Assembly: GCA_016839515.1 (NCBI GenBank)
Contig: JAEOUE010000164.1
Coordinates: 1 to 21,474, forward strand
Direction: 5' to 3'
Source: Candidatus Hodarchaeum mangrovi
Lineage (GTDB): Archaea; Asgardarchaeota; Heimdallarchaeia; Hodarchaeales; Hodarchaeaceae
DNA: 21,474 bases
Shown: one piece after another, positions 2,996-20,894 of the stretch
Layout of the letters: every line of letters begins with the position of its first letter
Position numbering within the stretch: position 1 is the first letter of the stretch
The notes under the pieces: model-generated
What the model was told of the DNA's origin: nothing
What the model saw: only the letters and a program-made list of their open reading frames with translations
The model's database searches: none
Made by a program: the position numbers and the translations under genes

Positions 2996-3331
2996 ATGCT
3001 TATGGTCTCCATTCAAATTAATCTTTATGGTCGACTTGGAACTAATCTGGGAACAAATATCAAACTAGATTTTCTAGAAAACACCAGTCCAACGATTCGA
3101 CATGTAATAACAAAACTTATTGAAATGGATCCAATCCTAAAAGATATCTTGCTAAAAAATGATAAATTAAGTCAAGGAACAATTCTGTTGATAAATGGAC
3201 ATATAATGAATCGATCAGAGTTAGGTTTGGATACTCCACTGAAGGAGGAGGATCATATCACTGTTGATAAACTTGGATTTATAGAAATTGTTGGTGGAGG
3301 TTCAGAAGAGAAAAAATATGACTACAATTAG
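2996..3331 (+). CDS. MoaD/ThiS/SAMP-family ubiquitin-like (beta-grasp) protein with a C-terminal extension
   Basis: I-x-L-Y-G-x-L start, LLING...GLDTPLKEED-x-I and a near-terminal VGGG, the pattern of archaeal SAMP1/MoaD. GGAG at 2991-2994 favours the ATG at 3002 as the real start. Confidence 0.82.
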   Translation: MLMVSIQINLYGRLGTNLGTNIKLDFLENTSPTIRHVITKLIEMDPILKDILLKNDKLSQGTILLINGHIMNRSELGLDTPLKEEDHITVDKLGFIEIVGGGSEEKKYDYN

Positions 3332-3342
3332 GTGAATGGAAC

Positions 3343-5712
3343 ATGCAGAAAATTATTGGTCAATCTATTCCTAGAAAAGATGCTTTTGAAAAAATCACAG
3401 GAAAGGCGATTTTTACATTTGATGTTAATAATATACCACATTTACTTTATGCGAAATTTCTAACCTCACCATATGCTCATGCACGAATTATAAATATTAA
3501 TACATCAGATGCAGAGAAAATATTTGGTGTAAAAGCAATTGTTACGGGAAAAGATTGGCCTGTTAAAATTGGTCTGTATGCAGGAGATCGCGACATCCTC
3601 GCATTTGAAAAAGTTCGGTGGGTGGGACAACCCGTGGTAGCGATTGCAGCTACAACAGAGAAAATCGCTGAAGACGCATTACAAAAAATAAAAATTGACT
3701 ATGAACCATTACCAGCAATATTTGATCCAGTTAAAGCAAAAAAATCAAGAAAAATTCTTGTCCATGAAAAAATGAATGAATATGAACATTCGCCAGCTTT
3801 TAATCCAATAGCTGGAACTAATATCGCCAATCACTTTAAATTACGTAAAGGAAACATAGAAAAAGGTTTTTCCGAAGCAGATCACATTATTGAGAATACC
3901 TATACCATGCCCCAAGTGTCTCATTCATATATGGAACCAATAGTCTCCCTTGGTCATTATAAACAAGATGGATCAATCGAGGTTTGGTCCTCAGCACAAT
4001 CACCCTTTACTGTAAGGAACCTTTTGGGGATTACTTTTGCTATTTCGACTTCAAAAATCACTGTTCATTCTCCATTCATAGGAGGAGGTTTTGGTGGAAA
4101 AGCAGGCTTAAATTTCGAGCCTCTGGTTGTTCTACTATCTAGGAAAGCAGGAAATCTTCCTGTGAAACTTACATTAAATCGTGAAGAAAATTTCAAAAGT
4201 GCTCCTATCAGAGTAGGTATGGTTGCTACAATTAAAAGTGGAATTAAGGGGAACGGAAGGATTATTGCACAGGAAATTGAATACATTTGGGATTCAGGTG
4301 CATGTGCTGACTATGCAGTTAATGTAGGCCGAGCTGCAGGATATGTTTCAATTGGTCCTTATGATATTGAAAATATCAAATCTGATTCCTATACTGTTTA
4401 TACAAATAAACCTTATGCAACGGCTTTCCGAGGTTTTGGACATATGGAGCTGCTATGGGCAATTGAACGCCAAAATGATCTGATTGCAAACAAATTAGGA
4501 ATAAGCCCTGTAGAGTTCCGTTTATTGAACACATTAAAACCAGGAAAATCATATACTGCCAACCAACAAAAACTAAGAGTGGATGCAGGAAGTGTGGATG
4601 AATGTTTGGAAAAAGTTTGGAAAGAATTATTTGACCATAAATCTCCTCCTCCAAAAGAAAAACCATGGTTGTTCAATGGAATAGGTATTGCTTGCTTTAT
4701 GAAAGGCCCTGCTCAACCTCCAAATAGCGCATCTTCAGCATTTGTTAAATTTGATGAAAATGGAGGTATTTTTATTTCTGTTGGAACTACAGAAATGGGA
4801 CAAGGAACGATCACCTCATTAAGTCAAATTGCAGCTGAAGAACTTGGATTACCTATTGAAAAAGTAACAATTAGTGGAATTCGGAATACTGATTCAGATG
4901 CTTATACTTGGCAAACAGTTGGATCACGATCGTTATTCATGGATGGAAATGCTGTAAGAAATGCATGTCTTGACGCCAAGAAACAAATTTTTAGTATTTC
5001 AAGTCAAGTGCTAAAGGTCCCTATCTCTGAATTGGTTTTAGAAAATGAATTAATTTTCTCTAAAGGGGAACCTTGGAAAAACTTAAGCCTAGCAGAGGTT
5101 GTGATGGGATACATGTTTCCATCTGGTGAGTCTATTGGGGGACCTATTATAGGAAGAGGTTCTTATATAGCAAAAATGACAATTTTGGATCCTGAAACAG
5201 GAGCAGGGAATCCTGCAATCTTTGAAACATTTGGAGCTCAAGGTGTCGAGATTGAATTAAATGGTTTAACTGGTGAAATCATTATCAAACGATTGATATC
5301 TGCTTTCGATGTAGGCAAAGCAATTAATCCTTTACTTTGTGAAGGCCAGATAATTGGAGGTAGTGTAATGGCCCTTTCTCTTGCTATGAATGAAGAATTA
5401 AAGTATAACGATGAGGGGATGCTTCTCAATCCTAACCTTGTTGATTATGTCGTTGCTCGCTCAGGTGATGTCCCAAAAGAATTTATTTCATTCTTAATTG
5501 AGAATCCGCAACACGATGGTCCTTTTGGAGCAAGAGGCATTGGGGAATTGACCATGTTAGGAGTTCCCGCTGCCTTAGGAAATGCTATTCAAAATGCAAT
5601 TGGGGTATCAATTAATGACCTCCCTTTAACTGCAGAGAATATCTGGAAAGCAATTCTTACTCAAAAACCTGAGCTAATTCAACAATTAAAAGAAAAAATC
5701 TTGGAAGGCTAG
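3343..5712 (+). CDS. Xanthine oxidase/dehydrogenase-family molybdopterin-binding (large) subunit
   Basis: SPYAHARI, QVSHSYMEP, GGGFGGK, AFRGFG, EMGQG, TVGSRS, DVGKAINP...GQIIGG and ARGIGE (catalytic Glu). AGGTGA RBS upstream. Confidence 0.95.
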   Translation: MQKIIGQSIPRKDAFEKITGKAIFTFDVNNIPHLLYAKFLTSPYAHARIININTSDAEKIFGVKAIVTGKDWPVKIGLYAGDRDILAFEKVRWVGQPVVAIAATTEKIAEDALQKIKIDYEPLPAIFDPVKAKKSRKILVHEKMNEYEHSPAFNPIAGTNIANHFKLRKGNIEKGFSEADHIIENTYTMPQVSHSYMEPIVSLGHYKQDGSIEVWSSAQSPFTVRNLLGITFAISTSKITVHSPFIGGGFGGKAGLNFEPLVVLLSRKAGNLPVKLTLNREENFKSAPIRVGMVATIKSGIKGNGRIIAQEIEYIWDSGACADYAVNVGRAAGYVSIGPYDIENIKSDSYTVYTNKPYATAFRGFGHMELLWAIERQNDLIANKLGISPVEFRLLNTLKPGKSYTANQQKLRVDAGSVDECLEKVWKELFDHKSPPPKEKPWLFNGIGIACFMKGPAQPPNSASSAFVKFDENGGIFISVGTTEMGQGTITSLSQIAAEELGLPIEKVTISGIRNTDSDAYTWQTVGSRSLFMDGNAVRNACLDAKKQIFSISSQVLKVPISELVLENELIFSKGEPWKNLSLAEVVMGYMFPSGESIGGPIIGRGSYIAKMTILDPETGAGNPAIFETFGAQGVEIELNGLTGEIIIKRLISAFDVGKAINPLLCEGQIIGGSVMALSLAMNEELKYNDEGMLLNPNLVDYVVARSGDVPKEFISFLIENPQHDGPFGARGIGELTMLGVPAALGNAIQNAIGVSINDLPLTAENIWKAILTQKPELIQQLKEKILEG

Positions 5713-5714
5713 AG

Positions 5715-6581
5715 ATGAATACAACTATTTCCTACACAACTTTGCCAGAATTTGAGTTTGTGTCTCCAAATACTCTTAAAGAAACTTTATCTTTACTTAA
5801 TATCCATCAATCAAATGCAGTAGTCTTAGCAGGGGGTACAGACCTTTTACCCGAACTTCGTCATAGGATAAAACAACCTAAATTGATTATTGATGTTAAA
5901 AACATACCAGAGTTAAACGAACTGAATTTAAATGATAAATTCCTTACTATAGGAGCTGCCGTTCCTGTAACAAAAGTACTAACCCTCCCAAAATTAGATT
6001 CACTCTTTACTGCATTGTATCAATCACTACAAAATTTCTGTGATGAGATTCTTCGAAATAGAGCCACAATTGCTGGAAATATTGCCACTTCTTCACCAGC
6101 TGCTGACAGTGCTGGTCCATTACTTGTATTTGATGCAATAATAGAAATACAGTCTATAAAAAAAGGAAAATGCACTGTAAAAATTGAAGATTTCTTCAAA
6201 GGAGTTAAACAAAATTGCTTGGAACCTGATGAGCTTATTACAAAAATCAGGTTACCTATACCTGAAGAGGAAACAAAATCAGCCTATCTTAAAATGAAAA
6301 GAGGAGTGGAAGATATAGCACTCGTAGGTGTTACAGGAGCTTCAAACAGGACGAAAACATTGTTTGCTTATACAGCAGTAGCTTCTACACCTATCTTAAT
6401 AGATGTTTCAGCAATTCTGTCAAAGAATCGAAATCAAACCAAAGAAGATCTATTTCAAATCATATGGAAACAAATTCAAGCAAAAATTCAACCAATATCA
6501 GATGTACGCTCTGGAAAGGATTATAGATTTCATATTGCTGAAATATATACAAGAATAATACTACGGGAGTTTCTCAAATGA
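5715..6581 (+). CDS. Xanthine dehydrogenase-family FAD-binding (medium) subunit (CoxM/CutM-like)
   Basis: LAGGTDL, IGAAV, RNRATIAGNI...SPAAD, PISDVRSGKDYR. Starts 2 bp after the large-subunit stop. Confidence 0.95.
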   Translation: MNTTISYTTLPEFEFVSPNTLKETLSLLNIHQSNAVVLAGGTDLLPELRHRIKQPKLIIDVKNIPELNELNLNDKFLTIGAAVPVTKVLTLPKLDSLFTALYQSLQNFCDEILRNRATIAGNIATSSPAADSAGPLLVFDAIIEIQSIKKGKCTVKIEDFFKGVKQNCLEPDELITKIRLPIPEEETKSAYLKMKRGVEDIALVGVTGASNRTKTLFAYTAVASTPILIDVSAILSKNRNQTKEDLFQIIWKQIQAKIQPISDVRSGKDYRFHIAEIYTRIILREFLK

Positions 6582-7045
6582 AAACATCGATTAATTTAAT
6601 AATTAATGGTTCAAAAATAGAAGTTTCGGTGTTACCGAATGAAACCCTTCTTGATGTACTAAGAAATAAACTTGATATTAAATCTGTGAAAGCTGCATGT
6701 TGGCAAGGAGATTGTGGACTCTGCACTGTCTTATTAAATAGAATTCCAGTTAAATCCTGTTTGATATTAGCTATAGAAGCAAAAAACTCAGCGATAACTA
6801 CTGTTGAAGGGTTATCTGATGGAGAAAATCTATCTAATCTACAAAAAGCTTTCATTAAAAATGGTGCAGTACAATGTGGATTCTGTACTCCTGCATTTCT
6901 TCTTATGAGTTATTATTTAATATCAAAACGGAAAATTTTTTCCCGCTCCGAAATAGAACACTCCCTTAATGGAATTATTTGTAGATGCACAGGATATAAA
7001 CAAATCGTTGATAGTATCTTAGATGTTCAAAATCTAGGACATTAA
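6578..7045 (+). CDS. Xanthine dehydrogenase-family 2x[2Fe-2S] (small) subunit (CoxS/CutS-like)
   Basis: CWQGDCGLC...KSC, QCGFCTP and CRCTGY motifs. ATGA overlap with the FAD subunit gene. Confidence 0.96.
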   Translation: MKTSINLIINGSKIEVSVLPNETLLDVLRNKLDIKSVKAACWQGDCGLCTVLLNRIPVKSCLILAIEAKNSAITTVEGLSDGENLSNLQKAFIKNGAVQCGFCTPAFLLMSYYLISKRKIFSRSEIEHSLNGIICRCTGYKQIVDSILDVQNLGH

Positions 7046-7170
7046 TACTTTGATGGATTATTCCATTTAATTTCCTATAAATTAATTTCAATTAAAGCAA
7101 GGAGTTATTGAAAAATCTTCAATGGCAATCTTTGAGCAGAAAGAACACTGAATTATTCATATACTTCTTT

Positions 7171-7198
7171 ATTTGACCTATGTTAAAATAGGTTAAAT
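7171..7198. promoter_or_regulatory. Inverted repeat upstream of the pseudo-hydrogenase pair, possible operator or hairpin
   Basis: ATTTGACCTAT-N6-ATAGGTTAAAT, 10/11 match (the mismatch is G:T), about 90 bp before the ATG at 7287. Confidence 0.35.
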
Positions 7199-7286
7199 CC
7201 AATTTCTATAAAATTATGATTGCTTGAAACCGATTAAATAGAAAGATTAAATTGAACTGTTTATTCTCTAATAATAGGGTTAGATA

Positions 7287-8360
7287 ATGTCAAATCCTGC
7301 TGTACATTTTCCTTTTCTCTCTAGATCTAATCTAAATGCTCAGAAAGCCTTATCAAATTTGAATCCAGCCAATATTTTTACTTTTGTAAATGAAAAATTT
7401 AAAATTAATACCCAAATTTATCCAACACTATTAAATAAATCATATAAAGAATTATTTCCCATCTTAGAACAGAAAACCCATTTAATGGCAATTTCAATAC
7501 AGGTTCATTTATCTGAAGCATTAGAATATTTAGCTGGTATTCGGTTATCACAAAGTGTTCTTCAATTTCGAGGATTTTTATTAAATTTAGAACGAGTGAT
7601 GAACGAGCTATTTATTTTACATTGGTTTTCTTATTTCATCAATGATAGGAGATTGAATGAGCAAACGTATAAAGCATACTCCGAATTTTTAACTATGCTT
7701 GAAAAATACTGGGATAACCTTTCACCTAGAAACATCATCTGTCCAGGAGGTATTAAAGAACCACAAGTTACAATTGATTCAAACAAAGTGAAAGGATTGT
7801 GTATTAGACTCATTAACTCTTTTCAGAAGTTTATAAGAAGGATGGAAAAAAATAAAATATATGCAGAATTTTCACAGGTGAAAACTCCAACTAGTGATCT
7901 ATTAAAAGAGTGGGGAATAAGTGGTCCATTAACAAGGACAGTTAATATTCTACCATATGGAATCAATCTTCATACTAAAATAAACACTTCAACGAAATTT
8001 CTACAATATGCTTATGACAATAATAATACACTTCAAAGTCTCTTAAAAGTTACCTATTCAGAGCTATTTCTTTCTTTGAATAGAATGGTTTCACTAATAT
8101 CAGAGGATTATAAATCAGAAGAAATTAATTTTCCCAATATAATTAATGGGGAAGTTACATCAACCTTTTTATTTCCCCTTGGTGAGGCACATTTGACTTT
8201 AAGAATAGCAGATAATAATATAACTTATTTTAATTATCTATTCCCATATATCAGTAATCTATTTGGTTTTCAAAAAATGCTTGAGAATTATGAAGAGAAA
8301 TATAAGCCAATATTCTTATTATTTTTCAATCCTGAGGTAATTGTTTCAGGAATGGTGTGA
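7287..8360 (+). CDS. Degenerate group 4 [NiFe]-hydrogenase large subunit / complex I 49-kDa (NuoD)-fold protein without Ni-binding cysteines
   Basis: Colinear matches to the family pattern, aligned by eye from recalled sequences: EALEYLAGI..R....LERV, IICPGGI, WGISGPLTR, V...EL..SL, GE.......PLGE, P...NL....KMLE. The RxCGxC site reads QKTHLM and the DPCxxC site reads NPEVIV. Confidence 0.75.
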   Translation: MSNPAVHFPFLSRSNLNAQKALSNLNPANIFTFVNEKFKINTQIYPTLLNKSYKELFPILEQKTHLMAISIQVHLSEALEYLAGIRLSQSVLQFRGFLLNLERVMNELFILHWFSYFINDRRLNEQTYKAYSEFLTMLEKYWDNLSPRNIICPGGIKEPQVTIDSNKVKGLCIRLINSFQKFIRRMEKNKIYAEFSQVKTPTSDLLKEWGISGPLTRTVNILPYGINLHTKINTSTKFLQYAYDNNNTLQSLLKVTYSELFLSLNRMVSLISEDYKSEEINFPNIINGEVTSTFLFPLGEAHLTLRIADNNITYFNYLFPYISNLFGFQKMLENYEEKYKPIFLLFFNPEVIVSGMV

Positions 8361-8692
8361 AATTAACTTTGACACCCCCCCAAATAATGTTTTTATTATT
8401 TTGTACATTAATCTTAATAATTCTATTATTACTTTCACTAGATATTGTACTTCTTTCCAAGCTCTTTTCAAAAAAGAAAAAAAATAAAGAAACAGGTTTA
8501 TTGCAGGATATAATAAAAATTCAAGCCTTTATTACTACTAGACTGCAGGTAAACCAAAATTTAAAGCCTTTGGAGTCTATTTGTCCGACAGAGGCAATAA
8601 ACTACAATTCAGATAACCATTCCATTCAAATCTCAAAAAATCTATGTTTAGGAGTCCTCTGTTTGCGTTGTATTGACTACTTCAACAAATAA
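8357..8692 (+). CDS. Membrane-anchored ferredoxin-like protein (NuoI/EchF-like remnant, one predicted [4Fe-4S] site)
   Basis: N-terminal TM helix followed by KKKKNK, then ICPTEAI and CLGVLCLRC. GTGA start/stop overlap with the upstream gene. Confidence 0.65.
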   Translation: MKLTLTPPQIMFLLFCTLILIILLLLSLDIVLLSKLFSKKKKNKETGLLQDIIKIQAFITTRLQVNQNLKPLESICPTEAINYNSDNHSIQISKNLCLGVLCLRCIDYFNK

Positions 8693-8735
8693 GATCAAAT
8701 CAAGATTTTGATAAATCTCTTCCATCTAATATGTT

Positions 8736-8754
8736 AGAAAAAATAGAAAGAAAG
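8736..8754 (-). terminator. Oligo-T tract after ppsA (archaeal-type terminator)
   Basis: Minus strand reads CTTTCTTTCTATTTTTTCT immediately after the ppsA stop. Confidence 0.45.
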
Positions 8755-8756
8755 AC

Positions 8757-11201
8757 TTAAGGCGAAATCCCTAATTCTTTCTCTTTTTTAGCAATATCTA
8801 ATTTTGTTTTAACCACAGTATCAGGATTCAGGCTCATTGAATCAATACCGCATTCAACAAGAAAAGTCGCAAACTCCGGGAAATCACTAGGTGCTTGACC
8901 ACAAATACCTATTTTCCTACCCTTTTCTTTGGCGATTTTTATAACTGAAGCAACCAGTCTCTTTACAGACTCGTTTCGTTCATCATAAATATGAGCCACA
9001 AGCTCGGAGTCACGGTCAAGTCCTAATGCTAGTTGTGTGAGATCATTACTTCCAATAGAAAACCCATCGAAAACTTCAGCGAATCCATCAGCTTGAATGA
9101 CATTAGAAGGAATTTCAGCCATGACATATACTTCAAGCCCATTTTCACCCTGTTTTAGACCAGCTTCTGACATTACTTGAATGACTTTTCTGCCTTCTTC
9201 TACTGTTCTACAGAATGGAACCATAGTGATAACGTTAGTTAAACCCATATCATCTCGAACTCGTTTAATAGCTTCACATTCCATAACAAAGGCAGGTTTA
9301 AATGATTCATCATAATATCGAGAAGCACCACGCCATCCAATCATGGGATTACTCTCAGTTGGTTCATATAATTTTCCACCAATGAGATTTGCATACTCAT
9401 TTGTTTTAAAGTCCGATAATCTAACTACAACATCATTAGGATAGAACCCTGCAGCAATACGCCCTAATCCCATGGCCAATTGTTCAATAAAGAATTCACG
9501 TTTATTAGGATAAGCAGCAGTTAATTCATCGATCTTTCGAATAATGTCTCGAATCTCAGGATCTTTATCAGCTTTTTTCTTTAATTCATCATAATGATAA
9601 AGCGCTAAAGGATGAATACCTATATATGAATTGATAACAAATTCTTCACGTGCTAATCCTACACCATCATTGGGAATCTGGCCTTGAACAAAAGCCTTCT
9701 CTGGGATTCCTACATTCATCATAATTTTAGTACGAGTTTTTGGCATAGAGTCTAATTTTATTACATCAATTCTAAAGGGGAGAATTCCCTCGTAAATAAC
9801 ACCTTCTTGACCTTCTGAACAAGATACTGTCACTTCCTGGCTGTCTTTGAGAATATCTGTAGCATTTTCTGTCCCAATAATTGCTGGAATGCCTAGTTCA
9901 CGAGACACGATTGCTGCATGACACGTTCTACCACCTCTATTTGTAACAATAGCACTAGCAATCTTCATGATTGGTTCCCAATCAGGATCAGTCATATCAG
10001 TTACTAAGACTTCTCCTTTCTTGAACTCAGTAATCCGAGCAGAACTCTCAATAACATTCACTTTTCCCTGCCCAATTTTGGATCCAACAGCTTGACCAGT
10101 GACTAAAACCTTACTCTTTTCTTCTAATACATAAGTTTCAATTATATTAGCCTCTTTCTGGGAATGAACTGTTTCTGGACGAGCCTGAACAATATAGAGT
10201 TTCCCATCACCTTCGTAATCGCCATCACCATTTTTTGCCCATTCAATGTCCATAGCTTTTCCATAATGATCTTCAATAATTACAGACCATCTCGCCAGCT
10301 CTAATATCTCATCATCAGTTATACAATAATGTTGTCGCATCGAATCAGGAGTTTCTACATTCTTAGTTGGACGACGAAGATCAGATGTATAAACCATCAT
10401 AATTTCCTTGGATCCTAATCTTTTTCCAATTATTGGACGTTTTCCATGTTTTAAGGTTGGTTTGTGAACATAAAATTCATCTGGATTCACCACACCTTGA
10501 ACTACATTTTCGCCAAGCCCATAAGCACCAGTAATAAATACTGCATCCTTAAATCCTGATTCAGTATCAATGGAGAAAATAACTCCTGAAGCAGCAGAGT
10601 CAGATCTAACCATAATTTGGACCGCAATCGAAAGGTAAACGTCAAAATGACCAAATCCTTTATCTGTTCGATAAGAAATAGCACGATCAGTGAATAAACT
10701 GGCAAAACATGATTTGCATGCATCTAATAATGATTCTTCACCTCGTACGTTTAGGAAGGTTTCTTGTTGACCCGCAAAGGATGCATCAGGAAGATCTTCA
10801 GCCGTAGCGCTAGATCGAACAGCTACATCAACATCTGATCGTTCAACTAGTTCACAAAGTTTCTTATAAGCCATCCGAATTTCTTGTTCCAAATCAGCAG
10901 GAAGATCGGCATATCGAATAATTGACCGAACCTTACGACCTCTTTCTTGCAGATTCTTGATATCATGAGTGTCTAAGCCAGCAAGAGCATCACGAATAGA
11001 TTTCTCAATACCAGCATCCTTGAGAAGATGACGATAGGCAGTTGCTGTTACTGCAAACCCATTAGGAATATTGACACCTTTCTCAGTAAGGAAATGATAC
11101 ATCTCACCCAGAGACGCATTTTTACCCCCTACAAGAGGGACATCCGCGATTCTGAGTTCATCAAACCATAATATGTATTTCTCATTTCTGCTTTTTGACA
11201 T
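8757..11201 (-). CDS. ppsA: Phosphoenolpyruvate synthase (pyruvate, water dikinase)
   Basis: VGGKNASLGEM, VAVRSSATAEDLPDASFAGQQETFLN, DIEWA, VQARPETV, phospho-His motif GGRTCHAAIVSRELG, NPMIGWRGASRY, FSIGSNDLTQ, ICGQAPSD. Confidence 0.98.
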   Translation of the reverse strand: MSKSRNEKYILWFDELRIADVPLVGGKNASLGEMYHFLTEKGVNIPNGFAVTATAYRHLLKDAGIEKSIRDALAGLDTHDIKNLQERGRKVRSIIRYADLPADLEQEIRMAYKKLCELVERSDVDVAVRSSATAEDLPDASFAGQQETFLNVRGEESLLDACKSCFASLFTDRAISYRTDKGFGHFDVYLSIAVQIMVRSDSAASGVIFSIDTESGFKDAVFITGAYGLGENVVQGVVNPDEFYVHKPTLKHGKRPIIGKRLGSKEIMMVYTSDLRRPTKNVETPDSMRQHYCITDDEILELARWSVIIEDHYGKAMDIEWAKNGDGDYEGDGKLYIVQARPETVHSQKEANIIETYVLEEKSKVLVTGQAVGSKIGQGKVNVIESSARITEFKKGEVLVTDMTDPDWEPIMKIASAIVTNRGGRTCHAAIVSRELGIPAIIGTENATDILKDSQEVTVSCSEGQEGVIYEGILPFRIDVIKLDSMPKTRTKIMMNVGIPEKAFVQGQIPNDGVGLAREEFVINSYIGIHPLALYHYDELKKKADKDPEIRDIIRKIDELTAAYPNKREFFIEQLAMGLGRIAAGFYPNDVVVRLSDFKTNEYANLIGGKLYEPTESNPMIGWRGASRYYDESFKPAFVMECEAIKRVRDDMGLTNVITMVPFCRTVEEGRKVIQVMSEAGLKQGENGLEVYVMAEIPSNVIQADGFAEVFDGFSIGSNDLTQLALGLDRDSELVAHIYDERNESVKRLVASVIKIAKEKGRKIGICGQAPSDFPEFATFLVECGIDSMSLNPDTVVKTKLDIAKKEKELGISP

Positions 11202-14495: not shown

Positions 14496-16700
14496 TCATG
14501 TGAAACTATAATTTACTAATGGAAGATCAGCTAATGCTTCTGCTATAATTTCAACAAGATCTTTTACCTCGAAAATCTCCTCAAATTGTTGTGTTTTTAC
14601 TGCATCAGTTAACATCGACATACAGAAAGGACAAGCAGTTACCAATAGTTTTTTCCTCTGAGTACTTTTTACATTATCTGCTTTAAATTCATTAAAGGTC
14701 TTTCTAGCCTCTCGAACCCGTCGTTCAGAAATACGCATTTCTACCCATTCAGGGGTGTCTCTGAACATATTTCCTCCACCACCTCCACAACAATAAGAAA
14801 ACTGTTTATGATTTGGCATTTCAGAGAGTTTAATCCCGGGTATAGCCTGAAGCAATTTTCGAGGAGCATCAAAAATATTATTATACCGCCCTAAATAACA
14901 TGGATCATGGAAAACCACATCATAATTTAATTCTTTCGAAAATTTAAGTCTACCATCTTCAAACAGTTCAGAAAGTAATTGACTTATGTGTACAACATCA
15001 AATTTTCCCCCATATTCGGGATATTCATTTTTAATTGTATTATAGGCATGAGGTGATGAACACACAATTCTTTTAACCTCTCGTTTTTTAAACATCTGAA
15101 TATTTTCTTCAGCAAGCATCTGGAATAGGGCTTCTTCTCCTATTCGACGCATTTCATTACCATCGTTCTTTTCAGCGTCTTCAAAAGTTCCATAATCAAG
15201 CCCAATCTTATTAAATATTTCATAGGTTGCACGAGCTACTTTTTGATTTCGTGGGTCATATGCTAAAGTATCCCCTGGTAACCAAAGAAGTTTTGACTCT
15301 GAATCTTTTATTTTAGGAAGGATTCCCTCCTTTAACCATTGTGTTCGATCTCTTTTAGGTTGATTCCAAACATTCCCATATTGATAAACTGATTCAAGCA
15401 TTGTAGTAAAAGTTCCAGGAACTAATCCTTGTTCTACAAGTGTAGCTCTTAATCCAACGATCATATCAACGTGATTAATCATATGAGGACAAGCATTGAC
15501 ACAAGCATAACAGGTCACACAAGCCCATAAAACATCTTCAGTTAAACCAGATTTTTCTTGATTATCAGCTAGTATAGGGACATTTTTTTGAGAACGAATC
15601 AATCCGTATTGCTTTTTTCCCCAATCACGAATATTCTGGATAACTTTCAAAGGGGAAAGTGGTTCCCCTGAGTCTTGAGCAGGACAATAATTATGACAAA
15701 AATGACACTTCATACAAGCAGAAGCTTCCAAGAGTTGGTAAAAGGAGAAATCTTCTATTTTACTTATTCCCTCAGCAGGAAAATTAAGTTGTCCTTTGGG
15801 GATCTCAATATCCTTTAGAAGTATGTTTGCAACCCCAATGCCTACATGGAAAAATTTACCAAATGTAAGATATACAGCTCCAATAAACGCTGCTGTCAGA
15901 TGAGTAAAGTAAAAGAAACTATGAAGCGCAAAAATTTGTGAATTGGTAATATTTGGTGTTAAAAAATATATTATTTGTGCTACTGGCATTGAAATAAATG
16001 ATACCCACTCAAACTCAATAAAATCAGGAGTGTTAATTAATCCATAGAGAATTCTTGTACTTTCGACAAAAAATCCTGAAAATGCTACCCAGAAGAGAAG
16101 GAGTAAAAGGAGTAAATCTTCAAAGCCAGCACGAGGATAATAATCACGATCAATACCATATCGTCTAATAATTGCAAGCAAAACTCCTAAGAAAAGAAGT
16201 ACTCCTGCAAAATCAGCTGCAAATGAGTAAGCCAAATATATTGGTCCAATAAGTAACTTTTCATGAAAAATATATTCATGTATAGTTGCAATTATTGTTG
16301 CTATCATGGCTCCAAGAAAACCCAACATAATCATTAAATGTGCTGCAAAACTTGTTTTTCCCCGAGTATCTCGCTTAAATATTCCTCCACCAATGCTATA
16401 ATAGATCCTTTTCAGGAAAGAGCGTGAAAAAAGGTTTTTAAACCCCTTCTTCATAACAGAAACAAAAAATGAGAAAAATTTCTGATCAGATCTATCATAT
16501 CTCCCATGAAACCAAACACGTATCCCACGATAAATACCAATTATGACTATTATAGTTGCAATTAAAGCACTGATGTAAATTAAGTTAGTAATAACTTGAC
16601 CATAGGGTTCAATCCCTTTTGGCCAATACATTTTTCTTTCTGCGGTCCAAAACCATTCCTGTAATATTTTAAGAATTTCTTGAAACATTTTTAAACCCAT
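14496..16700 (-). CDS. Membrane-bound FeS oxidoreductase, FadF/EMO type (NarI-like cytochrome b + 2x[4Fe-4S] + CCG domains)
   Basis: About 6 TM helices with candidate heme His residues (AAHLM, TIHEY, ALHSFFYFTHL, KFFHV); CMKCHFCHNYCP and CVTCYACVNACP; HDPCYLGR, CCGGGGG, ACPFC. Adjacent to etfAB and an acyl-CoA dehydrogenase. Confidence 0.9.
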   Translation of the reverse strand: MGLKMFQEILKILQEWFWTAERKMYWPKGIEPYGQVITNLIYISALIATIIVIIGIYRGIRVWFHGRYDRSDQKFFSFFVSVMKKGFKNLFSRSFLKRIYYSIGGGIFKRDTRGKTSFAAHLMIMLGFLGAMIATIIATIHEYIFHEKLLIGPIYLAYSFAADFAGVLLFLGVLLAIIRRYGIDRDYYPRAGFEDLLLLLLLFWVAFSGFFVESTRILYGLINTPDFIEFEWVSFISMPVAQIIYFLTPNITNSQIFALHSFFYFTHLTAAFIGAVYLTFGKFFHVGIGVANILLKDIEIPKGQLNFPAEGISKIEDFSFYQLLEASACMKCHFCHNYCPAQDSGEPLSPLKVIQNIRDWGKKQYGLIRSQKNVPILADNQEKSGLTEDVLWACVTCYACVNACPHMINHVDMIVGLRATLVEQGLVPGTFTTMLESVYQYGNVWNQPKRDRTQWLKEGILPKIKDSESKLLWLPGDTLAYDPRNQKVARATYEIFNKIGLDYGTFEDAEKNDGNEMRRIGEEALFQMLAEENIQMFKKREVKRIVCSSPHAYNTIKNEYPEYGGKFDVVHISQLLSELFEDGRLKFSKELNYDVVFHDPCYLGRYNNIFDAPRKLLQAIPGIKLSEMPNHKQFSYCCGGGGGNMFRDTPEWVEMRISERRVREARKTFNEFKADNVKSTQRKKLLVTACPFCMSMLTDAVKTQQFEEIFEVKDLVEIIAEALADLPLVNYSFT

Positions 16701-16852
16701 AATTCATTTGACTTGTTTTGCAAAGAATAATTTGCTTATAATCTTGAAGATTCTTAGAAGTATTTAGTAGGACATAAAATATTCTAAATCAAGAAGATAT
16801 AAAGCAGTTCCAACACTATTGTCCTTTTTCGGAAATTATTTCTTGTTATTGA

Positions 16853-16873
16853 CAAAACTTATTTGAAGTTTTG
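16853..16873. promoter_or_regulatory. Perfect 8-bp inverted repeat upstream of the FadF/EMO-like gene
   Basis: CAAAACTT-ATTTG-AAGTTTTG. A minus-strand TTTATA (16798-16803) lies between it and the start codon. Confidence 0.3.
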
Positions 16874-16940
16874 GCGATTATAATTCAGCTGTTTAATAAG
16901 ACTCAAGGTCATTAAACTAGTAATGTAAAAATTGATTTCA

Positions 16941-16976
16941 GAAAAGAAAAAAGAAAACAGTTTAGATAGTCTAAAC
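16941..16976 (-). terminator. Short hairpin plus oligo-T tract ending the acd-etfB-etfA transcript
   Basis: GTTTAGA-TAG-TCTAAAC (16960-16976) overlaps the etfA stop and is followed on the minus strand by TTTTCTTTTTTCTTTTC. Confidence 0.5.
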
Positions 16977-17924
16977 ATGTTTTGTTAATTCAGGAAGGAC
17001 CGCATGAAGATCTCCAATAATCGCGAAATGAGCAATCTCTAGGATTGGTGCTTCTTCATCAGTATTTACAGCAATAATTGTTTTAGAGTTTCGCATTCCA
17101 ACAAGATGCTGAATAGCACCAGAAATTCCACATGCTATGTAAATATCAGGATTTACAGTACTTCCAGTCTGACCAACCTCATGATCATGTGGTACCCATC
17201 CAGCATCTACTGCTGCTCTACTAGCTGCTACTTCACCACCTAATGCTTTAGCTGTATCAAAAATTATAGAAAATTTCTCTTTGGTACCAACACCACGACC
17301 ACCAGAAACTAAAAGTTTGGCCTTAGTAATATCTACTGATACTTTAGCCATTTTTTCTTCAATAAAATGTTCCCTTTGATCTTTTGTATCAACTACTGGT
17401 GAAAAATTAATAACCTCTCCTGTTAAAGAAGCATCAGGTTCTACTTCGGGATTATTTCCTCGAAGAATAGTAACGAAATTTAATTTATTGAGATCACCTT
17501 CCATCTTAACAAACAATTTTTCTTCAAAGAGAGGATGAATTGCTTCTATTTTGTCAGCATCGATTTTAAGGGATTTTACAGAAGCAAAAATTGCATCATT
17601 AAATCGGGCAGCTAAACGAGGCATCATTTCTTGTGCATATAAACTAGCGCCTGCAACGACAATATTAGGATTTTCTTGTTTTATAATTGCTTCAACTGTA
17701 CGTGTATGGAATAAAATATTTACTCCTTCAAATTGAGGATCATCTACTTTGAATACTTTTGATATGCCATATTTAGTTGCCTCTAAGGCGAGTTCATCGA
17801 TATTATGACCGAGTATAACACCAATTGTCTCGACTCCAAGACCTTTCACGGCAGTTAAACATTCTTTTGTGACTCCAATTAATTTTCCATAAGCAAACTC
17901 TAAAACTACTAGTACTTTTGTCAT
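16971..17924 (-). CDS. etfA: Electron transfer flavoprotein alpha subunit
   Basis: VSGGRGVG, AASRAAVDAGW, VGQTG, YIACGISGAIQHLVGM, AVNTDEEAPI. Start set to the ATG at 17924 because the GTG at 17933 is part of a GAGGTG RBS. Confidence 0.96.
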   Translation of the reverse strand: MTKVLVVLEFAYGKLIGVTKECLTAVKGLGVETIGVILGHNIDELALEATKYGISKVFKVDDPQFEGVNILFHTRTVEAIIKQENPNIVVAGASLYAQEMMPRLAARFNDAIFASVKSLKIDADKIEAIHPLFEEKLFVKMEGDLNKLNFVTILRGNNPEVEPDASLTGEVINFSPVVDTKDQREHFIEEKMAKVSVDITKAKLLVSGGRGVGTKEKFSIIFDTAKALGGEVAASRAAVDAGWVPHDHEVGQTGSTVNPDIYIACGISGAIQHLVGMRNSKTIIAVNTDEEAPILEIAHFAIIGDLHAVLPELTKHV

Positions 17925-17935
17925 TCTTTTCACCT

Positions 17936-18736
17936 CTATTTATATGCTCCAATATTAAGTCCTTTTTCCTTGAGTTTAGTCACTAGAGTGGAAACCATAT
18001 CAGGGATATCTGCATCTTTAATGATTATACACTTCTCAGTTCGAGCAGGAGGAACTTCAATTTCATCAAACTTTACACTTGGCTCTGAAACCTGTACCTC
18101 AAGCTCGTTAACCTGCCAAATAGGAACAACTGTCTTACTCGCAAGCATAATTCGACGGACACTGGTATAACGAGGTTCTTCATAATCACCAGTACTCGCA
18201 ATACTGAGAACAGCAGGAAGTTCAAGCTCAACTGTTCTGGTTCCGCCTTCTATAATCTTATCTACCTTGACCTTTCCACCATCAAAAGAAATTTTCTCAA
18301 CCCAACAGGCAACAGGAAGATCCAAAAACTCTGATACCATGGGGGCCATAGTCGCAGTTCCAAAGTCATAACTTTGCATACCAAATAGAAGAAGGTCATA
18401 GTTTCCAATTTTTTTAGCTGCAGCGGCTAGAATTTTAGCAACTTGAAAAAAGTGAGTTATTTTCTCATTAGAATTATCAATTCTGATTGCCTCATGGCAT
18501 CCCATTGCTATAGCTTCTTTTACTACTTTATCTGCCATTTCAGAACCTAGACATACTACAGTTACTTTGCCTTCACCTTTTCCTTCGACAATACGAAGGG
18601 CAGCTTCAATAGCGTGTTTATCATAATTGTTAGTCATGACATCAGCTTTATCATCTCGATTTCCTGGATGAATTTCATCAGGATCAAGAGGCGCATTTCG
18701 ATCAAGCGTTGCTTTTACAAAAACTATTATATTCAT
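17936..18736 (-). CDS. etfB: Electron transfer flavoprotein beta subunit
   Basis: MNIIVFVK, N.YDKHAIEAAL, EAIAMG, YDLLLFGMQSYD, ELPAVLS, EPRY. GGAGGT RBS; adjacent to etfA. Confidence 0.94.
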   Translation of the reverse strand: MNIIVFVKATLDRNAPLDPDEIHPGNRDDKADVMTNNYDKHAIEAALRIVEGKGEGKVTVVCLGSEMADKVVKEAIAMGCHEAIRIDNSNEKITHFFQVAKILAAAAKKIGNYDLLLFGMQSYDFGTATMAPMVSEFLDLPVACWVEKISFDGGKVKVDKIIEGGTRTVELELPAVLSIASTGDYEEPRYTSVRRIMLASKTVVPIWQVNELEVQVSEPSVKFDEIEVPPARTEKCIIIKDADIPDMVSTLVTKLKEKGLNIGAYK

Positions 18737-18758
18737 TACTTGTTACCTCCGGTTTTTT

Positions 18759-19988
18759 TTATTTTTGAGCACGTTCCAATGCACCACGACCAATAATGGT
18801 CTTTTGCATCTCTGAAGTACCTTCATAAATAGTCAATACACGAGCATCTCGGAATAAACGCTCCACACGATATTCACGTGAGTACCCATAACCCCCATGA
18901 ATTTGAACTGCATCATAAGTTACTTTTTGAGCTATCTCAGTAGCATAATATTTTGCCATTGACGATTCGTTTCGTGTATCTTCTCCTAAATGCTTCATAT
19001 GAGCTGTGTTCAAATAACTTAAACGAGCTTGATGAACACTTGTTGCCATATCTGCTAAAGTAAAATTAATTGCCTGATGATATCCTATTGGCTTTCCAAA
19101 TTGTACTCGTTGAAGCGAATAGTTGATACTTTCTTGAAGAGCGGTTTCAGTAATCCCAACAGCTTGAGCTGCTATCCCAATTCGACTAGATGCTAAACTT
19201 CCAAGAATAAGGCGAAATCCATCATTTTCTTGTCCTAATAAGTTATCTTTGGGAACTTCAGCTCTATCTAAAGCGATCTGTGCAGTAATTGATCCATGTA
19301 AACCCATTTTTTCCTCAATACGAACAGTTTCCAAACCATCCTTAGCAATTTTAGGATCTATTATAAAAGCACTAAGGCCCCTTGGTCCCTTATCTTTATC
19401 TGTCACAGCAAAAGTAATATAAGTCCCTGCTACCCCTCCATGAGATAACCAAATCTTATTCCCAGTTAAAAAGTACGAATCCCCTTCTTTTTCTGCTTTT
19501 GTTGAGACTGCAGAAATATCAGATCCAGCATTAGGTTCAGAAAAAGCCATAGCACCTATTGCATCACCTGATCCAAGAAGAGGTAGGTATTTTTCTCGGG
19601 CTACATCCGTTCCGAAGTTTTTAATAATTTCTATGTTCAACCCCTGACTCGGAAAAAACATAGAAAAGGCTAAAGATGCTCTTGCCATTAATTCAATGAT
19701 TGCAGTCCAAAGAGTATAACTTAAACCAAAACCATTATAGTCTTCTGGAACAATAATTGAAAATAGATCATTCTGTTGACATTTCTTATATAATTCCATC
19801 ATTCCAGAAGGAAAGGATACGATCTTTGTTGCAGGATCAAAATGAGCCCCCTCAGAATCCCAATCCTGCTCTTTTTCTATGATTTCATTCATAGCTAAAT
19901 CATAAACCATCTCTAGTATCATATCATTTTGTTCTTGTGATTGCTTGTCAAAATTAAAAGTTTTCAATATCTTCTTTATTTGCTTCAT
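18759..19988 (-). CDS. Acyl-CoA dehydrogenase (short/branched-chain-like)
   Basis: FSEPNAGSD, LTGNKIW, EEKMGLHGS, RIGIAAQAVG, RVQFGKPI, QIHGGYGY, IYEGTSEMQK (catalytic Glu in the SCAD/MCAD position). GAGGT RBS. Confidence 0.96.
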   Translation of the reverse strand: MKQIKKILKTFNFDKQSQEQNDMILEMVYDLAMNEIIEKEQDWDSEGAHFDPATKIVSFPSGMMELYKKCQQNDLFSIIVPEDYNGFGLSYTLWTAIIELMARASLAFSMFFPSQGLNIEIIKNFGTDVAREKYLPLLGSGDAIGAMAFSEPNAGSDISAVSTKAEKEGDSYFLTGNKIWLSHGGVAGTYITFAVTDKDKGPRGLSAFIIDPKIAKDGLETVRIEEKMGLHGSITAQIALDRAEVPKDNLLGQENDGFRLILGSLASSRIGIAAQAVGITETALQESINYSLQRVQFGKPIGYHQAINFTLADMATSVHQARLSYLNTAHMKHLGEDTRNESSMAKYYATEIAQKVTYDAVQIHGGYGYSREYRVERLFRDARVLTIYEGTSEMQKTIIGRGALERAQK

Positions 19989-20210: not shown

Positions 20211-20894
20211 TTATTGACTTTTAATTTGCTCTGATATCATTTTTTTTTGGCTGGTTTTGCGATCGTTTCTTTCCTTTTCTTGATGATCTACACTGGAAAT
20301 AATCTCTTTTGCGAGTATCAGAAAATCTTCATCCACATTAATTTGATCTTTGGCAGAGGTCTCAATATAGTGAATTTCAAAGCCATTTTTTTCTCTAACG
20401 AGCTTGGTGAGCTCAGCTGCATATTGTTGTCCATGTTTGGAAGCAACTTGATTAGGAAATGCTGGATTCCCTCTTAGATCACATTTTGCACCTACAATGA
20501 TTAGAGGTAACTTCCCTCTTCCATTAAAATCCCAGTAATTTTTAATCCATTCTACTAAATTCATGTAGGATTCCTGATTGGTTATATCAAAGAAGCACAG
20601 AGCACCAACTGCACCCCGATAGTATAAATCACGTACAGCTTTAAACCTAGGCTGGCCTGCGAGATCCCAAATTTGAAATTTAATGATATAATTCTTTTTA
20701 GTTGGCGAAAAATAAAAATTAATCTCTTTAGAAGCAAAATCTGCGCCAATAGTCATTAAATATTCAGTCTTAAAGCCTTCACCCAACCAAGCACGGCGGA
20801 GAGCTGTCTTACCAACACCACCATCGCCAATTAAGACGATTTTTGCTCGTAACTTTTCTCCTAGAATTTTACGCGATGTTGATCGATCCGCCAT
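20211..20894 (-). CDS. Ras-superfamily small GTPase, Rab-like
   Basis: G1 GDGGVGKT, G2 YLMTIG, G3 WDLAGQ, G4 GAKCD, G5 ETSAK. Rab-like signature segments IGADF, KFQIW, RFKAV, YYRGA. GAGGT RBS. Confidence 0.95.
   Translation of the reverse strand: MADRSTSRKILGEKLRAKIVLIGDGGVGKTALRRAWLGEGFKTEYLMTIGADFASKEINFYFSPTKKNYIIKFQIWDLAGQPRFKAVRDLYYRGAVGALCFFDITNQESYMNLVEWIKNYWDFNGRGKLPLIIVGAKCDLRGNPAFPNQVASKHGQQYAAELTKLVREKNGFEIHYIETSAKDQINVDEDFLILAKEIISSVDHQEKERNDRKTSQKKMISEQIKSQ

Follow-up and report, generated by a model that had tools for sequence, protein, structure and literature searches.

The stretch analyzed here (the window, 21,474 bases of the Candidatus Hodarchaeum mangrovi contig JAEOUE010000164.1, ~33% G+C) encodes on its forward strand a pair of overlapping genes that are the subject of this analysis. 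The first gene (7287..8360, +) is an intact open reading frame (ORF) for a 357-amino-acid protein, P0001, that resembles NuoD and the large subunit of [NiFe]-hydrogenases and carries no Ni-Fe cysteines. The second gene (8357..8692, +) encodes a 111-amino-acid protein, P0002, with the features of a single-pass membrane protein and a four-cysteine half of a ferredoxin motif. The GTG start codon of P0002 lies on the TGA stop codon of P0001, such that the two genes share the four bases GTGA (8357..8360, +), exactly as an earlier sequence-only reading of this DNA had reported. An alternative TTG start for P0002 at 8369, five codons 3' of the GTG, agrees with the N-termini of its relatives; judging from this layout, the two genes are tightly coupled whichever start applies. 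No other part of the window is as rich in A+T as that holding the pair (7001-9000, 28-30% G+C compared to 31-39% elsewhere), which fits the fast evolution described below.

The sequence-only reading had placed P0001 in the group 4 [NiFe]-hydrogenase large-subunit fold and had proposed profile searches against the Pfam families Complex1_49kDa and NiFeSe_Hases. P0001 itself matched neither family (Complex1_49kDa is PF00346, gathering score 24 bits), and the relationship was instead detected with NCBIfam models, family profiles and structural comparison. The NCBIfam NuoD and FpoD models matched residues 50-220 of P0001 with E values of ~1e-6 (1.5e-6 for NuoD), with a NuoD score of 27.3 bits that is far under the cut-off of 360 for this model (NuoD and FpoD cut-offs range from 360 to 600). 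When P0001 was combined into a three-sequence profile with two close homologues, one 83% identical to it and the other (P0004) 73%, 13 matches were obtained in the PDB at E ≤ 10, and 12 of these were NuoD, NDUFS2, NdhH or MbhL. A scan of 1.84 billion representatives recovered about a dozen clusters of ~350-amino-acid relatives sharing 20-31% identity, and a word-indexed search with the family profile returned 6 proteins only. Using a 20-member family profile (alignment A5), 46 of the 49 PDB matches at E ≤ 1 were NuoD-type proteins (NuoD, NDUFS2, NdhH), MbhL, MbsL or HycE, with PINK1 accounting for the remaining three; the best match was 8e9g_D (E 1.9e-8), and MbhL and MbsL (6u8y_L) were matched at E 3.4e-8 and 3.3e-5, respectively. 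Complex1_49kDa matched 11 of the 20 family members at E ≤ 0.01, and P0011, P0013, P0015, P0016 and the homologues at loci L001 and L004 passed the PF00346 score, in contrast with P0001.

Pairwise profile alignment of the 20-member family with hhalign gave 85.9% for E. coli HycE (287 columns, residues 53-358) and 63% for NuoCD (146 columns). For P0004, the ESM Atlas model (predicted TM score (pTM) 0.82) gave a TM score of 0.83 over 344 residues to hydrogenase-3 large subunit and NuoD clusters. No membrane helix was predicted in P0001, its maximum Kyte-Doolittle hydropathy over 19 residues (KD(19)) being 1.2. Taken together, these data confirm P0001 as a member of the NuoD / [NiFe]-hydrogenase large-subunit superfamily and also, going by the model of its orthologue P0004, confirm that it shares the fold of this superfamily. 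The fold proposed from sequence thus stands, whereas the assignment to group 4 is not established: the scores of the family to NuoD/FpoD and to MbhL/HycE are tied and favor descent neither from a hydrogenase nor from a NuoD-type protein, and the nearest relatives are NuoCD-like fusions that we consider below. All of the database names found for members of the P0001 and P0002 families read "hypothetical protein."

Alignments of P0001 to MbhL (6cfw_L) and HycE, by hidden Markov model and hhalign, placed the residues E61-Q-K-T-H-L-M67 (7467..7487, +) on the L1 motif E/D-R-x-C-G-x-C, with T64 and M67 occupying the cysteine positions. The L2-equivalent site, N348-P-E-V-I-V353 (8328..8345, +), was located by hhalign on D-P-C531-x-x-C534 of HycE, with E350 and V353 in place of the cysteines; the position of V353 was set by register, the HycE alignment stopping one residue short. 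Both sites are those that had been picked out by eye, the first being borne out by MbhL and HycE and the second by HycE. Neither of the published motifs given in the Fig. 7 legend of PMC7886697, L1 C[GS][ILV]C[AGNS]xxH and L2 [DE][PL]Cx[AGST]Cx[DE][RL], was found by regular expression in 25 family sequences, nor was any CxxC, whereas the HycE control contains both motifs, in keeping with the claim that all four Ni-Fe cysteines have been replaced. Across the 20 aligned members, the first L1 cysteine column holds Q, S, D, N and others and the second N, T, M, L and others; E350 occupies the first L2 cysteine column in 16/20, and the second (353) is variable and hydrophobic (I, V, L, F and others). 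The arginine of the P-R-G motif is replaced by leucine or phenylalanine across the family. Column 65, which aligns with the tyrosine of the quinone-site motif R-x-D-Y, is histidine in P0001, tyrosine in P0004 and mostly proline elsewhere, and the histidine of the NuoD N-terminal loop has no placement in P0001, whose N-terminal 48 residues do not align. The low NuoD score and the lack of conservation at this tyrosine column agree with the view that P0001 is not a canonical NuoD. Regular expressions for NuoD motifs missed the E. coli NuoCD control, so they were discarded and not used as evidence.

All of the scaffold motifs that had been listed for P0001 are present, namely LER (101-103), PGG (153-155), G.SGP..R (210-217), P.GE (297-300) and P...NL (320-325), with little or no variation at their key residues across the family. 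Around the former metal site, E61 is conserved in 19/20 members and Q72, E80, P349 and H/Y302 in 20/20 each. Further conserved residues of the family are R95, G96, E102, G213, G299 and N324. Most of the conserved residues are scaffold residues common to the aligned MbhL, HycE and NuoD sequences, and no cysteine or histidine is invariant in the large protein across the aligned family. As its sequence stands, P0001 cannot bind Ni-Fe via the canonical cysteines. Given that variation is seen in three of the four columns that once held ligands, and that the conserved residues are mostly those of the scaffold, the site appears to have been lost and not replaced.

The product of the second gene has one predicted transmembrane helix at residues ~10-33 (8384..8455, +), where KD(19) reaches its maximum of 3.19 in the window starting at residue 10. 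One lysine or arginine is found in residues 1-9, compared to six in residues 34-48; this bias favors an N-out/C-in arrangement, and P0002 probably adopts this topology. Beyond the helix lie C76-P77...C97-x4-C102-x2-C105 (8582..8671, +), the candidate ligands of one [4Fe-4S] cluster. C76-P77, C97, C102 and C105 are invariant in the 10/10 syntenic homologues and in 30/30 partners after a database search. In ferredoxins, a CP cysteine and the three cysteines of the following motif provide the four ligands of one [4Fe-4S] cluster. The P0002 family aligns to this CP...CxxCxxC part of ferredoxin domains with a two-residue insertion. Of the cluster motif CxxCxxCxxxCP it has only CP plus Cx4Cx2C, which would suffice for P0002 to bind one [4Fe-4S] cluster in a cytoplasmic domain of ~45 amino acids. 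The description of this neighbor as a small membrane Fe-S protein is thus supported with respect to the predicted helix and the four invariant cysteines, from which we infer the cluster itself.

Matches of the P0002 family to ferredoxin domains in the PDB were weak (E 0.021 for the DsrA ferredoxin domain and 0.03 for HycB3), and Pfam gave only hits below threshold on the small proteins (LdpA_Fe-S-bd in 4/10 members, Fer4_7 in 1/10). With hhalign, the family showed what we consider generic motif resemblance only to HycB (38%), HycF (11.8-21.7%) and NuoI (9.4%), and no relationship to HycG (0.09%) or NuoB (0.06%). The relative P0028 bears the precomputed label PF27867.1, which was not returned by the Pfam scan here. 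The ESM Atlas model of another relative, P0039, was poor (pTM 0.25), and none of its matches reached 0.9 or a TM score of 0.5.

A scan of GTDB species genomes with a six-sequence family alignment identified ten further loci (L001-L010), all in metagenome-assembled genomes of Asgard archaea; a scan with the three close homologues only had returned no locus. An intact homologue of the large protein is encoded at 10/10 loci, and a small ORF follows it at a spacing of -4 to +6 nt in all nine loci that have downstream sequence, L002 ending at a contig edge. The small partners are 109-119 amino acids long and have a single helix and four cysteines. The pairwise distances of the large and small proteins correlate with each other (r 0.89, 45 pairs; partial r 0.76 when PEP (phosphoenolpyruvate) synthase is controlled for), and a value as high as that observed arose in 0 of 5000 Mantel permutations; this is weak evidence because the taxa are related.

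Both proteins have diverged rapidly. Comparison of the window with the loci gave identities of 31-36% for the large protein and 26-34% for the small protein, as against 85-87% for PEP synthase. We estimated the ratio of nonsynonymous to synonymous substitution rates (dN/dS) by the Nei-Gojobori method in unsaturated pairs, obtaining 0.17-0.27 for the large gene and 0.21-0.29 for the small gene (0.43 in one saturated pair). Most neighboring genes fell between 0.02 and 0.15, with 0.02-0.05 for PEP synthase, 0.07-0.09 for enolase and 0.08-0.11 for XDH-L, while ATPase subunit C gave 0.19-0.22. Values well below 1 in both genes indicate that the pair has been kept by selection, with relaxed constraint, and speak strongly against gene decay. 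This relaxed constraint fits a non-catalytic role better than that of a core enzyme.

No NuoB, NuoC, NuoH, antiporter or Hyp domain was detected among the 19 ORFs of the window, as had been claimed from the sequence alone, except for a sub-threshold match of MnhG to a 127-amino-acid ORF at 1042-1425 (15.3 bits compared to a cut-off of 63.1), which we treated as chance. Likewise, none of the 138 flanking ORFs of the ten loci, covering ~10 kb on each side, carried a Nuo, Mbh, Mrp or Hyp domain. The term "orphan" that had been applied to the pair is thus justified for ~10 kb on each side in ten loci and is not established beyond that distance.

PEP synthase lies 3' of the pair in convergent orientation in 8/9 loci. 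Genes for an enzyme of the XDH/CODH family lie upstream on the same strand in 7/9 loci having at least 7 kb of upstream sequence, and they directly adjoin the pair in the window, L001 and L006, with gaps of ~65 to 241 nt. In L003, L007, L009 and L010, a divergent trio of A/V-ATPase genes (I, C and K) sits between the XDH genes and the pair, and in L008 the contig end leaves only the I gene in view. The trio (I, C/AC39 and K, all on the - strand) occupies L003:5921-9642, L007:5935-9669, L009:6081-9745 and L010:5935-9685, with L008:921-3059 as its visible remainder in that locus; this membrane-sector trio is isolated, having no A or B catalytic genes nearby, and the window, L001 and L006 lack it.

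In the window, the upstream cluster (2996-7045, +) has a ThiS/SAMP-like ORF ahead of the genes for the Mo, FAD and 2Fe-2S subunits of the XDH/CODH-family enzyme. All of the NCBIfam subfamily scores for this enzyme were under cut-off, the best being 4-hydroxybenzoyl-CoA reductase alpha (491 compared to 994 bits). The 2Fe-2S subunit gene is separated from the pair by an AT-rich spacer of 241 nt (7046..7286, +) that contains only three ORFs, each of at most 38 amino acids. A TATA-like stretch at 7203-7216 shares alignment columns with a block conserved upstream of the relatives' genes, in an alignment that is poorly anchored and in which ORF starts differ; the spacer may hold a promoter belonging to the pair. 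Scans with Rfam and for tRNAs gave 0 matches each, and a scan for bacterial promoters and terminators returned 17 promoter-like sites (11.2 ± 4.1 expected) and 0 terminators, the bacterial models being uninformative for an archaeon. A defense-system or viral origin was also considered and rejected, PADLOC giving two weak unrelated matches and PHROGs none.

Elsewhere, the window encodes the beta subunit of pyruvate:ferredoxin oxidoreductase, PEP synthase, enolase and a YegS-type kinase. On the reverse strand (14496-19988), the gene for a 734-amino-acid protein lies beside those for ETF alpha and beta and an acyl-CoA dehydrogenase. The protein combines a QmoC-like N-terminal membrane part with two 4Fe-4S motifs and a CCG (HdrD/TfrB-like) domain, and the genes together resemble a cluster for an ETF-linked membrane Fe-S oxidoreductase. 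This cluster is conserved in L001, L008 and L009, whereas the HdrD-like gene is missing from L007 and L010, which have only the genes for ETF and the acyl-CoA dehydrogenase. A gene for a small GTPase of the Ras family, a signature typical of Asgard archaea, is found at 20211-20894 (-) and also at L006:14010-14528, L007:19784-20476 and L010:19795-20487. Two further reverse-strand ORFs, the hydrophobic 127-amino-acid ORF mentioned above and a 460-amino-acid ORF (1536-2918), have no family match apart from the sub-threshold MnhG hit to the former; judged by size and position, with sequences not aligned, counterparts of the 460-amino-acid ORF occur in L001, L002 and L006 and of the 127-amino-acid ORF in L002 and L006.

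We favor, with moderate confidence, the interpretation that the pair forms a two-subunit unit, conserved within and restricted to a lineage of Asgard archaea, that combines a dead NuoD-like scaffold with a membrane-tethered Fe-S protein carrying one cluster. P0001 retains the whole fold but has lost the four Ni-Fe cysteines and the arginine of P-R-G and does not conserve the quinone-site tyrosine position, and it is most likely a catalytically dead scaffold, or pseudo-enzyme. Translationally coupled to it, P0002 would be anchored by its one N-terminal helix, and we infer that the two proteins bind each other to form a heterodimer held on the cytoplasmic side of the membrane. The P0002 cluster would be the sole redox center of this heterodimer, and the NuoD-like subunit would act as a platform that docks and shields the cluster. 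Such a heterodimer might serve as a one-electron relay or a redox-sensing adaptor linking a soluble oxidoreductase with a membrane partner; the best available, if weak, candidate for the oxidoreductase is the upstream XDH-family Mo/FAD/2Fe-2S enzyme. It would be neither a hydrogenase, nor a quinone reductase, nor an ion pump. The roles of paralog, scaffold or redox sensor suggested by the sequence-only reading likewise stay hypothetical. A more speculative reading is a minimal redox module of two subunits lacking Ni-Fe, a quinone site, NuoB and any ion-translocating subunit, in which a one-cluster ferredoxin stub on a single helix would wire a unit that either tethers a soluble molybdo-flavoenzyme or other oxidoreductase to the membrane or senses redox state at that site in an Asgard lineage. 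The pair would then be the core of an undescribed use of the hydrogenase / complex I fold, and we consider this reading rather unlikely.

Several observations weigh against the two-subunit scaffold interpretation. The evidence for missing Nuo, Mbh, Mrp and Hyp partners spans ~10 kb flanks, and such partners could be encoded elsewhere in the genome. In a preprint on cultured Hodarchaeales (10.1101/2025.02.26.640444), Nuo-related subunits are described as "associated with other oxidoreductases," which could put the pair in a larger system. The pair is ~2-6-fold less constrained than most of its neighbors, a level that suits a scaffold but would also suit a gene of marginal function. E350 and the surrounding invariant polar residues, as read from the family alignment, leave some room for a new pocket in P0001. 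The records of the ten loci carry Hod-, Heimdall-, Hermod- and Promethearchaeota labels; however, PEP synthase and enolase are 85-97% and 80-92% identical, respectively, among the loci and the window, and L005, L007 and L010 differ by a dS of just 0.3-0.5. This similarity points to one fairly narrow lineage with inconsistent phylum labels, which should not be taken for phylogenetic breadth, and because the loci are closely related, their conserved synteny, including the link to the XDH genes, carries little weight. Moreover, in L002 and L005 the pair lies away from XDH genes.

The main rival explanation, which we judge unlikely but the most serious of the alternatives, is that the pair represents detached subunits of a larger complex I-, Mbh- or Ehr-like membrane complex whose NuoB/C/H/L-type genes reside elsewhere as the result of a split operon. 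The family closest to P0001 consists of cysteine-less NuoC-NuoD-like fusions (P0019-P0022; hhalign 99.3%, E 2e-20, 302 columns) that themselves score 146-189 bits with the NCBIfam NuoD models, under cut-off, and one preprint reports group 4 and complex I-like clusters in Asgard genomes (10.1101/2024.07.04.601786) and another mentions dispersed Nuo-related genes (the HC1 preprint, 10.1101/2025.02.26.640444). However, no NuoB/C/H/L-type gene lies within ~10 kb in 10/10 loci, and the one constant partner is not like NuoB, NuoI or HycF (hhalign 0.06%, 9.4% and 11.8%). The pair also evolves far faster than a core respiratory subunit, which would be unusual for a part of such a complex. Somewhat less probable than a split operon is that the pair forms a dedicated membrane tether, and the site of electron exit or entry, for the neighboring XDH-family molybdo-flavoenzyme, by analogy to the proposed coupling of FDH (formate dehydrogenase) with Ehr. 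The position of the XDH L, M and S genes upstream on the same strand in most loci, and their direct adjacency in three cases, speak for this tether, as does the proposal that Ehr complexes pair with a Mo/W enzyme (PMC6349859). In contrast, four loci have the oppositely oriented A/V-ATPase trio between the XDH genes and the pair, L002 and L005 have no XDH genes close by, the synteny may simply have been inherited among close relatives without being functional, and the XDH genes evolve 2-3-fold more slowly than the pair.

Two other explanations concern the fate of P0001 itself. The former Ni-Fe/quinone pocket could have been rebuilt as a new substrate or cofactor site fed by a single Fe-S cluster, which would make the pair a new enzyme. 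The prevalence of E350 at the first L2 cysteine position and the conservation of E61, Q72, E80, P349 and H/Y302 around the former site are consistent with this possibility, but residues vary at three of the four former ligand sites, the large protein has no invariant cysteine or histidine, most of its conserved residues are scaffold residues also found in MbhL, HycE and NuoD, and constraint on the gene is relaxed. This variation at the former ligand sites makes a dead scaffold likelier than a rebuilt active site, and we regard the latter as improbable. At the far end of the range lies a decaying relic, a pseudogene in progress left from a hydrogenase or complex I operon, for which the low G+C content of the region and the low identity of P0001 relative to PEP synthase could be cited. 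This explanation is already largely refuted and has very little chance of being correct: the window, all ten loci and roughly a dozen additional clusters have intact full-length ORFs, the syntenic orthologues evolve at dN/dS values well below 1, the four cysteines are invariant in every partner, and the coupling of the two genes is conserved.

Large membrane complexes, namely complex I, Fpo, Ndh, Ehr and Mbx/MBS, are known to contain relatives of [NiFe]-hydrogenases that lack the cysteines, and the Ehr, Mbx and MBS complexes also contain NuoB- and NuoH-like subunits. If the P0001-P0002 pair is a stand-alone version, in constant company of an unrelated partner of one helix and four cysteines, it would show that the fold may persist without any of its known chemistries and partners. 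This would bear on how the module linking hydrogenases to complex I was dismantled and reused, in Asgard archaea, where hydrogen metabolism and the origins of complex I are debated. Surveys based on domains would miscount the P0001 family as "NuoD" or "hydrogenase."

A literature search yielded no description of the pair or of either family, including in the accessible part of the Asgard bioenergetics preprint (10.1101/2024.07.04.601786), and the parts of 10.64898/2026.05.29.728830 and PMC9585477 that were available contain nothing on the P0001/P0002 families. Among known systems, NuoD, FpoD and NdhH share the fold of P0001 as well as the lack of Ni-Fe cysteines, and NuoD and FpoD are its best sequence-family matches in NCBIfam. 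In contrast with NuoD, P0001 scores far below every curated cut-off, does not conserve the tyrosine position of R-x-D-Y, and belongs to a family whose C-terminus reads [DN]-P-E and not the E-V-D-R end of the NuoD type seen in aligned NuoCD-like proteins; nor is there a nuo operon context (nuoB, C, H, I or antiporter) in the window or the ~10 kb flanks. With the group 4 [NiFe] large subunits (MbhL, HycE and EchE), P0001 has in common a near full-length alignment to HycE, the D-P of D-P-C-x-x-C, retained in the family alignment, and a C-terminus that ends a few residues later, and a ferredoxin-type gene directly follows it 3', as hycF follows hycE in E. coli. It differs from them in lacking the four cysteines and any CxxC, in having L for R in P-R-G, and in the absence of a small subunit, membrane subunits and hyp genes from the window and the ~10 kb flanks.

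Ehr, including Mbx and MBS, likewise has a large-subunit homologue without the Ni/Fe ligands, according to the description of Ehr in PMC6349859. That description presents Ehr, Mbx and MBS as membrane complexes of many subunits, Mrp antiporter-like ones among them, whereas the pair has no gene for an antiporter-, NuoB- or NuoH-like subunit within ~10 kb in 10/10 loci. The closest family to P0001 is that of the cysteine-less NuoC-NuoD-like fusions P0019-P0022 (hmmsearch E 1e-6 to 2e-5), which are known from metagenomes and are ~500 amino acids long. Like P0001, these fusions lack the L1 and L2 cysteines, and they differ from it in carrying an N-terminal Complex1_30kDa (NuoC) domain and in ending with the NuoD-type sequence K-E-V-E-R.

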